A stretch of 64,000 nt of DNA. Origin: a virus. The stretch spans positions 10,859 through 74,858 of IMG/VR virus record IMGVR_UViG_3300023171_000011. The stretch is one strand, 5' to 3'. The notes below the pieces were generated by a model. It did no database searches. It saw only the letters and a list, made by a program, of their open reading frames with translations, and had not been told where the DNA came from. A program made the position numbers and the translations under genes. Numbering within the stretch: position 1 is the stretch's first letter; every line of letters begins with the position of its first letter. This document shows, one piece after another, positions 3,510 to 62,930 of this stretch.

Positions 3510-3746
3510 ATTGTCGAAATAGATCGTAAATTATCCAAGAAATCCCTTATTCCTACCAAAACGTCAAAATAAGCCTGTTTTCAAAAGCTTAATTCGACGA
3601 AATCTTATTTGATGGTCATTTGATAGACCTAAGTATTAAAGTGTCTTATATCGCTTTAAAATCACTTAAATGGGTAATTTTTATTTGATTGGCATTCGGA
3701 AAGAAAAGAAAGTGAAAATAAATGTTGACAGTATGAAAATTAAATT

Positions 3747-3866
3747 TACATTTGTGATGTAATGGCAAGATATTTGGAAGTAGTGAGCTGAATATCGTAA
3801 AGTCAATAAAGGCATTAAGAAACTGCCCCTGGAGAAACTCACTACCTTCAGGGGTTTTTTATTTTT
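3747..3866 (+). promoter_or_regulatory. promoter plus structured leader (two hairpins with complementary loops, second is terminator-like) of the replication operon
   Basis: TACATTTG 3747-54; hairpin 3769-3796; hairpin 3825-3855 plus T tract; loops gtagtgag/ctcactac. Confidence 0.7.
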
Positions 3867-4154
3867 ATGGAAAATTTACAAGTAATCTGTCCAAAATGTA
3901 GTTCCTCTAATTATAGAGTTGAGCAAAGAGGTATTCACAAAACAGCATTCTGCCAGGAATGTGATGCTTACATCAAGAATCTCCCACAAGGCGTACCGAC
4001 AACACTTTTCTTTGGCAAGTACAAAGGCCGTACAATCGAATCTATGATGGAGAAGGATGAAGTGGGTTATCTTGTATGGTTGCTTACTAAGCCGGACTTA
4101 AAACCAAACTCCCTGCGTACAGCAATTGAGAAACATTTAATTAGCGGTAAGTAG
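3867..4154 (+). CDS. zinc-ribbon protein with C-terminal FGKYKG (DUF3820-like) module
   Basis: CPKC...CQEC; FFGKYKG...GYLVWL. Confidence 0.6.
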   Translation: MENLQVICPKCSSSNYRVEQRGIHKTAFCQECDAYIKNLPQGVPTTLFFGKYKGRTIESMMEKDEVGYLVWLLTKPDLKPNSLRTAIEKHLISGK

Positions 4155-9729: not shown

Positions 9730-9890
9730 TTTGCAAATCTACTTTTTTCACCATAGCTTTGATACAGCTTATACCCTTAGATGCAACATCAAAAAACAAG
9801 TAGAAACGTCATTTAAAATAATCTGAGGGGAGAAGTTTCTCTGGCTTTTGCTAGGGTATAAGCCACTTCAAACCTCAGTACTTTTTGGAT
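9730..9890 (+). promoter_or_regulatory. promoter plus structured leader of packaging/head operon
   Basis: TTTG 9730-33, 20 nt, TAGCTTTG 9754-61; gcttataccct (9767-77) complementary to agggtataagc (9853-63) in hairpin 9823-9878. Confidence 0.55.
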
Positions 9891-16302: not shown

Positions 16303-16373
16303 AACGGCTTATTTTGCATTTAATTAAAAATTGATATACATTTGATTAACAAATAGAAAAAAGAAAAAACAAT

Positions 16374-35347: not shown

Positions 35348-35491
35348 AGTAGTGGGAATTTAAAAATAGTTCCTATGTTTGAAGTGTAAGTAAAACATTG
35401 TGGGGTGAGAGACACAATTAAAAACATTAATAGGGCTTACTCGGCATCTGGACTCTCACCTCCTTTTGTCGGGTAAGCCTTAATCATTTTT
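35345..35491 (+). promoter_or_regulatory. promoter plus structured leader with complementary loops
   Basis: TATGTTTG 35374-81; hairpin 35397-35418; 15-bp hairpin 35432-35481; loops ggtgagag/ctctcacc. Confidence 0.65.
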
Positions 35492-55853: not shown

Positions 55854-56669
55854 TTATTGGGATACTACTTTATTCATCAGCCTACTCGGCCTTGAAGCAA
55901 TTATTTCAATCTTATTTGGGAGGCATCTAAACACGAGTCCTGTCTTATTGGAATGCTGGTATTTATTACTGATGTAACGTTCTCTAAATTCTCTGTAAGG
56001 GATAGCAAAAGGTTCAACTATTTTAAAGTTCCGTTGTGATCGGATAAGTTTAAGTTTGTTGAATTTCTTTTGCAGTCTTAGTCCTGTTGATTGAGATTGA
56101 TTGAATGTTGCTCCTATATTTCTGTTACTTAAAATAAAATCGTCGTTGATGGAAGTTTCTAGCTGTGTGTTGGTAAGTTTTAGCTTTTGTTGGGCCTTTA
56201 AAAGTTTTTTGGTTCCTTTAGGGTCGCTACGCTTGCTGTGATGAATCTTTATAATGTCCTTCTTTAACTTGGTGATTTTATATTGAGTGTTGAGTTTGTT
56301 TTTTATGAGTATAAATTTAACGAGAGTCTTTTGGTCTGCTATTTTGTTGATTACTCTAATGGCACATTCTGCTCCTGGAAATAGCAATAATAATTTTGCT
56401 CTGCCGGTACACAAAAGGTTTCCGTTATTATAGCTGATTAAGCCGTTTGTAGCCATTATCTCTAAATGCTTAGATAATGTGCTAGGTGAACAGTTGATCG
56501 CTCTTGAAAGGCTTCTTAATGTAAAGTTATAAATAACCCCTTTTTTATGTAACCCCCTTATTTGAGTAAAATAACTTATTGAGTTTAGCCAACCTTTTTC
56601 ATTCGCTGTTCTGACTAATCCTACGGGAAGCCAAACTTTGTGTGAATAATTGGATTGGATGTATTTCAA
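55854..56669 (-). CDS. basic winged-HTH DNA-binding protein
   Basis: LRSLSRAINCSPSTLSKHL...GLI; second HTH-like LSNRNIGATFNQSQSTG; TTG start. Confidence 0.55.
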   Translation of the reverse strand: MKYIQSNYSHKVWLPVGLVRTANEKGWLNSISYFTQIRGLHKKGVIYNFTLRSLSRAINCSPSTLSKHLEIMATNGLISYNNGNLLCTGRAKLLLLFPGAECAIRVINKIADQKTLVKFILIKNKLNTQYKITKLKKDIIKIHHSKRSDPKGTKKLLKAQQKLKLTNTQLETSINDDFILSNRNIGATFNQSQSTGLRLQKKFNKLKLIRSQRNFKIVEPFAIPYREFRERYISNKYQHSNKTGLVFRCLPNKIEIIASRPSRLMNKVVSQ

Positions 56670-56849
56670 AATAAAAGGGTTAGTAATGTCAACATTGTAC
56701 TTTGATTCGGACCCTGGCAGGACTTGTAGTACATCTGTTTTATTACTAACCCTTCTAATGTATCATTGGGGTTATTGTGTGATCGTCTGCGCCTGCCAGG
56801 GTCGCTCTGATCAATACCCAAAGATAGTGTGGTTTTTCGTTATTCCAAA
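56668..56849 (-). promoter_or_regulatory. promoter plus structured leader with 12-bp loop complementarity and terminator-like hairpin
   Basis: TTTG (56849-46), 19 nt, TATCTTTG (56826-19); 56792-56803 complementary to 56710-56721; 13-bp stem 56675-87/56742-54 plus T tract. Confidence 0.7.
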
Positions 56850-57325
56850 TAAAGTCGTGTCTTTTTTTCTAAAATATTTTCACCACATCATTTAAAGCTG
56901 CTAAAGCGAGTATAAAAAGAACTATTGCTTCAAAGACAACGAGTACTTTAATCGCTGTGTGGTTTTTGAAGGACTGGTTCGGTTGCGTTGTCATAGCTCT
57001 ACAAATTTAATAATTATCTCTTTAACTACTCTTGAAGCCGAATGAGAGATATATTCACCTCTCTTATATTTTTCGTATTGTTCCATTATACCCTCTACAG
57101 ACCAATCATAACCTTGCTCTCTGATAAAGAAATCTATTTTTTCGTGTAAAGTTTCTGCTTTATTCATTTTGTTTCCAGGTTAATTAAATCCTTCATTGTT
57201 AATTGATCGCCTTTCTCTTTAATGAGCTCATAGGTCTTAATGAACTTCTCTATATTGGTTGTGGTGATGGAGATGTTCTGCATTCTCATGGCTATCTCCA
57301 TTAGTTTTACTTCTTCGGTCATGGA

Positions 57326-59660: not shown

Positions 59661-59677
59661 TGTGATTTAAGTTTGTG

Positions 59678-59750
59678 GAATGAAGGGCAGATTCGAACTG
59701 CCGACCTGTGGTTTAGTCACCACTGCTCTAGCCTCTGAGCTACTCCATTC
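59678..59750 (-). tRNA. tRNA-like gene with 6-nt anticodon loop (undetermined)
   Basis: gaatggag/cttcattc 8-bp acceptor; gctc/gagc D stem; gtggt-GACTAA-accac; ggcag-ttcgaat-ctgcc. Confidence 0.75.
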
Positions 59751-61925: not shown

Positions 61926-62930
61926 TTATTCTGCAGGTGTGGTTTCTTCTGTGATTTTCTCTTTAGCAAATAAAATCTCTGCTTCTAAAAGCTTGATATA
62001 CTCTTCTGCTTTTGATTTCTCCATCTTACCGCTTAACTGGCTTTTTTCTAATCCTGTTTTTAATTGTGATACCAATACGGTAGGTAGGTAATGAAGATTG
62101 GTCATTTTAGTGAAGCATTCTTCTTCAAGCAACTCAAACATTTTTTTGAAGTCATCGTCTGTAGCAAGAGCAGGAGCAGCAGGTGTTGCATTCTCCTGAG
62201 ATCCATCTGTTTTCTTAGCATCCAAATCTTGTTTTTCTTTGTCGAAGTCAATACCATTGTTCTCATCATCCATTGCGATAATATTTGCGGCCATGATTGC
62301 GCGATCAGATTTAGGTAAGAATTTCCAGTGACGTTTAATGACTGTCTTACGTATCATCTCGTCTTCGTCGGTTAACCACGGTGTAGCTTTACCCGCTTTA
62401 ACTCCTTCTGAACGATTTTTAATAGCGATAAGCTGTTCTTCATACATCCATTCCACATGATCGCTACCATCGTTTAAAACAGCTATACTGTAAGCTCCTA
62501 TTCTTTCACCTTTCTTTCCATCCTTGCAGATACCATGCTTAACAAAACCATTAGAACCTTGCTCAATCTCAAACGGTTCATTTGAGTAAACAGGTTTGGC
62601 TTTGATTGATTTAACTGATCCAGTGTCTGTGATGATCTTGATAAGACCCATATAGCTGGGATCTAAGCAACACTTACCCTTACGTGGTACTAGGTATGCC
62701 ATTTTCATTACCGGACTCAATGTAAGACCTGACAAGGCCACATTAACTAAGCAATTCTTAACACTGCCTTGCTCCATACCCAATAGGTAGGTGTTGTTTT
62801 GGAAAGCCTGAACAGCAAACTCCATTTCTTTAGCGAAGTCAACCTTATTCAGATTCATTTCATCAAAGCTAGGTCTGGTAGCTGCGAGGTCTTTTTTAAG
62901 TTCGTCTATTTTTGCGAGTGTGTACGCCAT
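61926..62930 (-). CDS. recT: RecT-family single-strand annealing protein
   Basis: GLTLSP..AYLVP..SYMGL, IGAYS, PWLTD.DEM.RKTVIKR..KFLP. Confidence 0.9.
   Translation of the reverse strand: MAYTLAKIDELKKDLAATRPSFDEMNLNKVDFAKEMEFAVQAFQNNTYLLGMEQGSVKNCLVNVALSGLTLSPVMKMAYLVPRKGKCCLDPSYMGLIKIITDTGSVKSIKAKPVYSNEPFEIEQGSNGFVKHGICKDGKKGERIGAYSIAVLNDGSDHVEWMYEEQLIAIKNRSEGVKAGKATPWLTDEDEMIRKTVIKRHWKFLPKSDRAIMAANIIAMDDENNGIDFDKEKQDLDAKKTDGSQENATPAAPALATDDDFKKMFELLEEECFTKMTNLHYLPTVLVSQLKTGLEKSQLSGKMEKSKAEEYIKLLEAEILFAKEKITEETTPAE

Follow-up and report, generated by a model that had tools for sequence, protein, structure and literature searches.

A two-hairpin leader with complementary loops ahead of the replication operon of a phage, a candidate kissing-loop attenuator

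The leader of the replication operon and its setting

The stretch of DNA that we analysed (the window, 64,000 nucleotides) corresponds to bases 10859-74858 of a single-contig virus record of 74,858 bp, which was rated complete by CheckV and probably originates from a leaf-litter DNA metagenome. Its genes are arranged in the order tRNA array, replication module, morphogenesis block (with a terminase, a portal and a 1755-aa protein), a separate block marked by a DarB-like helicase-methylase, and leftward genes for recombination and regulators. The replication module encodes a 95-aa zinc-ribbon protein, an HNH nuclease, a replication initiator and a primase-polymerase. A blastn search of the phage collection gave no match for this phage. 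Among isolates, Cellulophaga phages came closest, with a primase about 29% identical, and the first 40 kb of one of them, phi38:1, contained no two-hairpin leaders of the type described here. The promoters of the phage genome match the Bacteroidota-type motif TAnnTTTG.

Two adjacent hairpins are found between a promoter-like site and the zinc-ribbon gene (leader 1, Table 1). The promoter-like site scored 10/12 in a consensus scan that does not cover Bacteroidota-type promoters, and its distance to hairpin 1 is the same in two relatives, L024 (TTGACA-N16-TACTTT) and L002 (TGTAGA-N16-TAAATT). The best explanation for this layout appears to be a leader of about 105 nt for the replication operon, spanning from a promoter-proximal start to the first codon. 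The 9-bp stem of hairpin 1 comprises 7 Watson-Crick and 2 G-U pairs and closes a 10-nt loop. Hairpin 2 has a GC-rich 10-bp stem with 6 G-C pairs, an 11-nt loop and a predicted free energy of -15.9 kcal/mol. The minimum-energy fold computed with RNAfold contained both hairpins. An earlier note on this DNA had placed the leader, its hairpins and the exact complementarity of the two loops, and every one of its positions proved exact.

Table 1. Coordinates of the leaders and associated features (window positions unless a genome is named)
Feature	Position	Strand	Sequence and remarks
Leader 1, promoter-like site	3725-3754	+	TTGACA-N16-TACATT; TTGACA at 3725-30; overlaps TACATTTG (3747-3754); Bacteroidota -7 consensus TAnnTTTG matched
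Leader 1, hairpin 1	3769-3796	+	arms GATATTTGG / CTGAATATC, loop AAGTAGTGAG; RNAfold
Leader 1, X	3780-3787	+	GTAGTGAG; kissing partner within hairpin 1 loop; exact complement of X'
Leader 1, linker	3797-3824	+	A-rich, 28 nt, conserved AAACTGCC at its end; comparison with relatives
Leader 1, hairpin 2	3825-3855	+	arms GCCCCTGGAG / CTTCAGGGGT, loop AAACTCACTAC; terminator-like; RNAfold
Leader 1, X'	3838-3845	+	CTCACTAC; in hairpin 2 loop; exact complement of X
Leader 1, T tract	3856-3866	+	TTTTTATTTTT; 11 bases (T5-A-T5); abuts ATG 3867
Zinc-ribbon protein gene	3867-4154	+	95 aa; DUF3820 family according to one source; first in replication module
Leader 2	35374-35491	+	TATGTTTG; hairpins 35397-35418 and 35431-35482; ATG 35492
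Leader 2, loop complement (8 nt)	35404-11 / 35453-60	+	GGTGAGAG / CTCTCACC
Leader 3	56667-56826	-	TATCTTTG; hairpin 56813-56780; long hairpin 56754-56675; TTG start 56669
Leader 3, loop complement (12 nt)	56803-792 / 56721-10	-	GACCCTGGCAGG / CCTGCCAGGGTC
Loose variant at 9.8 kb	9754-9888	+	TAGCTTTG; GCTTATACCCT (9767-77); terminator-like hairpin 9823-9878 holding AGGGTATAAGC (9853-63)
Positional relative of leader 3, G001	69474-69524		CCGTGACAGG / CCTGTCACGG
Positional relative of leader 3, G004	4928-4845		CTCTGGCAGGGGA / TCCCCTGCCAGAG

Hairpin 2 has the sequence hallmark of an intrinsic terminator, a GC-rich stem directly followed by a U tract. A U-rich tail after hairpin 2 was present in nearly all of the ten leader types described below, the tract being weak in the subgroup L136/L137. 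At the start sites of this genome, which are A-rich, positions -12 to -1 contain on average 5.6 A and 3.2 T. Among 99 predicted genes, those that follow leaders 1 and 2 rank first and second in T content over these positions (11 and 8 T, respectively). Because the T tract is atypical among A-rich start regions, it does not appear to serve translation, and it fits an intrinsic terminator. Ordinary gene-end terminators of this genome have loops of 3-6 nt; the large loops of the leader hairpins therefore look purpose-built to display X'. Hairpin 2, with every sequence mark present, is thus a predicted terminator located between the promoter and the ATG.

A 9-codon open reading frame (ATG...TGA, 3763-3792) begins a few bases past the likely transcription start and crosses hairpin 1 and X. 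L002 and L024 have an ATG at the same place, with a different frame and length. We considered leader-peptide attenuation and rejected it, as neither the frame nor the length of this reading frame is kept and it is missing from the wider family.

In most cases, the leaders behind other intergenic TAnnTTTG promoters on the plus strand (window positions 16337, 19849, 2158 and others) are A-rich, lack structure and measure only about 20-30 nt. Long leaders with a structure are exceptional among those driven by TAnnTTTG and are placed at operon heads. About 5.2 kb before the start of the window, in the leader of another operon (G000:C1:5604-5665, minus strand, locus L102), we found a match to the type-P1 twister ribozyme (RF03160) over the full length of the model, with a score of 46 bits (E = 9e-8) compared with a gathering score of 67.2. 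A tRNA-like gene on the minus strand (window 59677-59749) scored 49 bits with the Rfam tRNA model, and ARAGORN gave it an irregular anticodon loop.

Complementarity and covariation of the two loops

When X and X' were forced to pair as a nested helix, the resulting fold was 6-13 kcal/mol worse than the two hairpins in leader 1, its relatives and leader 2. A classical nested antiterminator helix was rejected for these leaders on account of this cost, and the complementarity would therefore be meaningful in them solely as a kissing helix. The kissing duplex alone amounted to -8 to -12.5 kcal/mol in the four leaders for which it was computed. The loops leave 1-3 unpaired nucleotides 5' of each paired segment and 0-1 nucleotide 3' of it, a geometry that fits a kissing helix formed upon both hairpins. 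In leader 3 and its relatives, the complementarity extends to 10-13 GC-rich pairs (-18 to -27 kcal/mol), and a mutually exclusive nested fold is, according to the energy model, possible as well.

A loose count in this genome found 4 terminator-like hairpins with an upstream complement of at least 8 nt against 1.4 expected, which is weakly significant (P = 0.04). Generic hairpin pairs were not enriched in complementary loops, and at loose settings the direct-repeat controls were commoner. We also used a strict definition: the first stem had to have 6 bp or more and a loop of no more than 14 nt, the second stem 8 bp or more and a loop of up to 22 nt, the gap could not exceed 60 nt, and the loop-loop complement had to reach 7 nt with at least 3 G or C. 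In six related genomes, 152 neighbouring hairpin pairs were eligible, and 3 of them were complementary against 0.22 expected (P = 0.0018). All 3 were leaders of this family, and none of the direct-repeat controls matched.

Further evidence came from orthologous leaders in close relatives, which were reached by searches with the primase and the zinc-ribbon protein. They share the promoter spacing, the hairpin 1 stem and the motif AAAYTGCC at the foot of hairpin 2. As a MAFFT alignment of the leaders was inconsistent with the structure, the pair tables were made by script. Kissing positions 1-8 read GC TA AT GC TA GC AT GC in this phage, GC TA AT AT GC GC CG GA in the L002 group and GC TA AT GC AT GC TG TA in L024. 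Positions 4 (G-C/A-T/G-C), 5 (T-A/G-C/A-T) and 7 (A-T/C-G/T-G) have thus changed on both sides among the three orthologues, with no broken pair at positions 1-7. The stems behaved in the same manner: those of hairpin 2 consist of wholly different letters in the close relatives with the pairing kept, and the 3' arm of hairpin 1 shows five differences between this phage and its relatives, all of them transitions, with the pairing kept through G-U. In four sequences we counted 11 G-U pairs, each of which would turn into an A-C mismatch if the opposite strand were the paired one; this indicates that the paired molecule is the sense-strand RNA.

We then extended the comparison to a wider family. 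Scanning IMG/VR contigs with an alignment of ten zinc-ribbon proteins gave 60 loci with about 45 full-length relatives, and in about 38 of these 45 contigs a two-hairpin leader stood directly upstream of the zinc-ribbon gene. Ten different loop addresses were found, which read, in the hairpin 1 segment, GTAGTGAG, GTAAGGC, GTAGAG, TTAGGGA, TAAGGG, ATAAGGA, AAGTAAGGA, TAAGTGATGCT, ACTGGAAAG and GTGGAAG. In a 10 x 10 table of loops, cognate pairs had 6-11 complementary nucleotides and non-cognate pairs 3.7 on average. The cognate sum of 77 (permuted mean 41.3) was reached in none of 200,000 permutations; the parser that picked the loops favours cognate complementarity, a small bias compared with the far larger effect. 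Comparative analysis shows that the apical loops of the two hairpins form, as deduced from their covariation, a conserved Watson-Crick kissing helix of 6-11 bp. Other searches did not enlarge the family: the zinc-ribbon protein retrieved only near-copies of L002 from metagenomes, a DNA pattern search with leader 1 retrieved only members already known, and neither the neighbouring 203-aa and 506-aa proteins used as queries nor a scan of the genome-contig collection gave any match.

Chance, or an element acting at the DNA level such as a cruciform, an origin or a protein-binding site, is an extremely improbable explanation. An inverted repeat looks identical on both strands and replication genes adjoin leader 1, as might be expected for such an element, and the loose count in this genome alone is only weakly significant. 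Against both stand the ten co-varying addresses. A DNA element would in addition not account for the confinement of G-U pairs to the sense strand, for the sense fold of leader 2 being far more stable than its antisense fold, for the orientation of the T tract, or for the occurrence of the same design before genes unrelated to replication.

The leader had no counterpart in Rfam release 15: the window contained no match that reached a gathering score, and the three leaders gave none when the limit was relaxed to E <= 5. The earlier note, which could not assign the motif to a named family, was right on this point. Its argument that independent sequences preserving one pairing scheme speak against chance was borne out as well, the decisive evidence being the covariation in relatives. 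It had also postulated a recurring class of cis-acting leader RNAs, in which a 5' hairpin is joined to a terminator-like hairpin through a loop-loop pseudoknot before the first gene of an operon; this is supported by the ten co-varying loop pairs, the co-varying stems, the conserved T tract and the lack of an Rfam match. The note further took the element for a switch in which the pseudoknot controls termination or initiation; this may be so, and no trigger was found. As judged from the comparative data, the leader is a real, uncatalogued element, with a predicted role in control.

Further copies in this phage and in its relatives

At least two more operons of the phage begin with a kissing leader of this design, each with letters of its own (leaders 2 and 3, Table 1), and in both of these leaders the minimum-energy fold consists of the two hairpins. 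The same layout had been said to recur with unrelated sequences at 35.4 kb, 56.7 kb and, more loosely, 9.8 kb. This was correct for the first two sites and overstated for the third, where the 11-nt partner GCTTATACCCT directly follows the TAnnTTTG motif and lies outside any hairpin loop. The X' segment at 9.8 kb overlaps the inner helix of a 56-nt terminator-like hairpin. We looked for an orthologous leader with which this variant could be tested and found none.

The hairpin 2 loop of leader 2 reads TCACCTCCTTT at window positions 35456-35466, which presumably is identical to the anti-Shine-Dalgarno region at the 3' end of 16S rRNA, and its partner GGGGTGAGAG is Shine-Dalgarno-like. This likeness may be a coincidence of purine-rich and pyrimidine-rich loops.

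The positional relatives of leader 3 in G001 and G004 share a core with compensated flanks. They are followed by more than 100-280 nt devoid of open reading frames (G001:C1:69474-69800 and G004:C1:4845-4600, minus strand), and they may be stand-alone small RNAs or parts of longer leaders. A looser sister design was observed at G001 62190-62241 (+), G004 62193-62246 (+), G005 57038-57108 (+) and G003 3042-2980 (-) / G001 46141-46082 (-). These are terminator-like hairpins whose interior is complementary over 7-17 nt to a segment just past a TAnnTTTG motif. As in the 9.8 kb case, the partner is at the RNA 5' end or in a stem rather than in a loop.

Possible roles of the kissing leader

We propose that the leader is a promoter-proximal transcription attenuator with a terminator modulated by the kissing helix, a reading that in our judgement has an even chance of being right. 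Only RNA polymerase that passes hairpin 2 would yield operon mRNA, and the kissing helix would modulate the hairpin 2 terminator, in our preferred view as a built-in antiterminator. During transcription, X' would appear before hairpin 2 could be completed by its 3' arm, and it could be caught by the loop of hairpin 1, which would have formed already. In several relatives with short linkers, stacking both hairpins fully on the kissing helix would strain the bottom pairs of the terminator; linkers of 12-15 nt are found beside stacks of about 30 bp in L144, L142 and L002. We lean only weakly towards this direction, because of the short linkers in relatives, the early emergence of X' and the absence of a known antiterminator protein. 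The complete 74,858-bp genome has no member of the Q-type and NusG-type families PF06530, PF03589 and PF02357, which is weak evidence since most phage genes have no assigned function. No phage RNA polymerase was found among the proteins scanned.

Several points count against this mechanism. The 28-nt linker of leader 1 imposes no strain, and the helix might equally stabilise the large-loop terminator or not affect termination. Kissing complexes with fully paired loops of 7-8 nt can coexist with closed stems. A strong constitutive antiterminator beside a terminator would have no obvious purpose unless X is masked, and we found no factor masking X. Leader 2 and the L136/L137 relatives, moreover, have weak U tracts.

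The converse, which we consider unlikely, is that the kissing helix strengthens the terminator by closing its large loop, giving a tight stop and a compact, stable terminated leader RNA that may act in trans on its own nascent leader in the manner of P4 CI RNA or P1 c4 RNA, with read-through depending on a further factor. The loop geometry is compatible with both stems being closed. Small RNA genes commonly consist of a promoter, two hairpins and a terminator, and the ORF-less stretches of more than 100 nt after the leader 3 relatives in G001 and G004 agree with this reading, as do the private letters of each leader. However, no antiterminator of the Q-type and NusG-like families was found in the complete genome, no third copy of X or X' occurs in a meaningful place in the genome, and pairing inside one molecule should outcompete pairing in trans. 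Extra copies of AAGTAGTG were considered as trans targets and rejected, as they fall in unrelated coding contexts.

A wider scheme, which we regard as quite unlikely, combines these elements into an RNA-only, address-coded gating of operons across a wide set of related phages. Each major operon would have a self-kissing terminator leader with private letters. The leader RNAs that end at the terminator would be abundant and would act back in trans solely on new transcripts of the same leader, thus timing the operons without an antiterminator protein.

A post-transcriptional role of the leader is rather unlikely. The two hairpins, stacked through the kissing helix, would then form a rigid 5' domain that protects the mRNA, insulates an unstructured start region, or provides a double-strand-like processing site for RNase III, an enzyme that cleaves loop-loop complexes in Staphylococcus aureus. 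This would suit the position of hairpin 1 at or near the RNA 5' end, the fact that hairpin 2 ends 5-12 nt ahead of the start codon in every copy of this genome, and leader 2, whose U tract is weak and which is flanked by a late-type gene block on either side. It would not require the canonical U tract that is conserved right after the stem despite the A-richness of start regions, which counts against it.

The known RNA that the leader resembles most is the guanidine-IV riboswitch (mepA motif), which likewise consists of a 5' hairpin, a linker and a terminator hairpin with kissing loops. In this riboswitch, the terminator stem is hampered in closing fully by the kissing loop that P1 forms with the terminator hairpin, and this linker-dependent competition decides on read-through (PMC11611296). 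A strain on the terminator like that considered above has been proposed for it. Guanidine-IV has conserved loop letters and a short contact that needs guanidine, whereas each copy of the leader has a private Watson-Crick pair of 6-13 nt and no evident ligand pocket. The genes behind guanidine-IV are exporters, and those behind the leaders belong to phage operons (for leader 1, zinc-ribbon protein, HNH nuclease, replication initiator and primase-polymerase). The leader thus neither matches the covariance model nor has the conserved loop nucleotides, and its gene context shows no association with exporters. By analogy, the leader would work most like guanidine-IV, yet it fails the tests of membership in that class. 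A ligand-sensing riboswitch of this type is very improbable despite the common topology, since each copy has loop letters of its own and long helices; with 6-11 Watson-Crick pairs, the kissing helix is long enough for a ligand not to be needed. The lack of an Rfam match even at E <= 5 and the presence of phage replication genes downstream also argue against it.

Other known systems share parts of the design of the attenuator proposed here. In the CI RNA of phage P4 (seqB with seqA/seqC) and the c4 RNA of P1/P7, a phage operon has complementary segments in its leader, and whether transcription ends prematurely depends on RNA-RNA pairing. The leader has complementary segments at the same kind of place, but CI and c4 RNA are processed and act in trans on two targets, whereas the leader carries its two partners within one molecule, in the apical loops of neighbouring hairpins. 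The leader did not match the corresponding Rfam family (C4), and no further copy of a target was found in the genome. The lambda unit of PR', 6S RNA and tR', which is released by Q, also has a promoter immediately followed by a terminator that gates a whole operon. That unit needs a protein antiterminator loaded at the promoter and has no loop-loop pairing, and no Q-type or NusG-like protein was found in the present phage.

In the antisense-RNA attenuators of pT181, pIP501 and RnaG/icsA, kissing loops decide whether the leader terminator forms, and in this respect they resemble the attenuator proposed here. Their kissing partner is a separate countertranscript, whereas the leader holds both partners in one molecule; the consensus scan, from which Bacteroidota-type promoters are absent, listed no minus-strand promoter-like site in the region 3700-3900. 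The put RNA of phage HK022 consists of two adjacent stem-loops just after a phage promoter, as in the leader, and has a cis effect on termination that requires no phage protein. Put RNA, however, attaches to RNA polymerase and influences terminators that lie further downstream. Its second stem does not itself serve as a terminator, and no pairing takes place between its loops.

A full-text literature search, which included guanidine-IV, gave no description of an intramolecular kissing leader of a hairpin and a terminator in phages. RNA-RNA pairing that governs leader terminators is known; what appears to be new is a covariation-supported kissing leader that is not catalogued in Rfam. The number of family members suffices for a curated RNA model. 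Should termination be set by the kissing loop, the leaders would constitute a family of transcription gates that are compact, need no ligand and are orthogonal by nature, with at least ten letter sets on a common scaffold. This would explain how phages without an RNA polymerase of their own or a known antiterminator stage their operons, and it would extend to phage gene control the principle of a kissing loop acting against a terminator, so far described for one riboswitch class.

Just upstream of leader 1 in one of the relatives (G003, L002:1450-1545), we observed a unit without an open reading frame, which comprises TATATTTG together with a small hairpin and a terminator whose loop of 14 nt reads TGAAGTAGTGTGCG. 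This unit may be a small RNA gene, and its loop resembles X of the present window.
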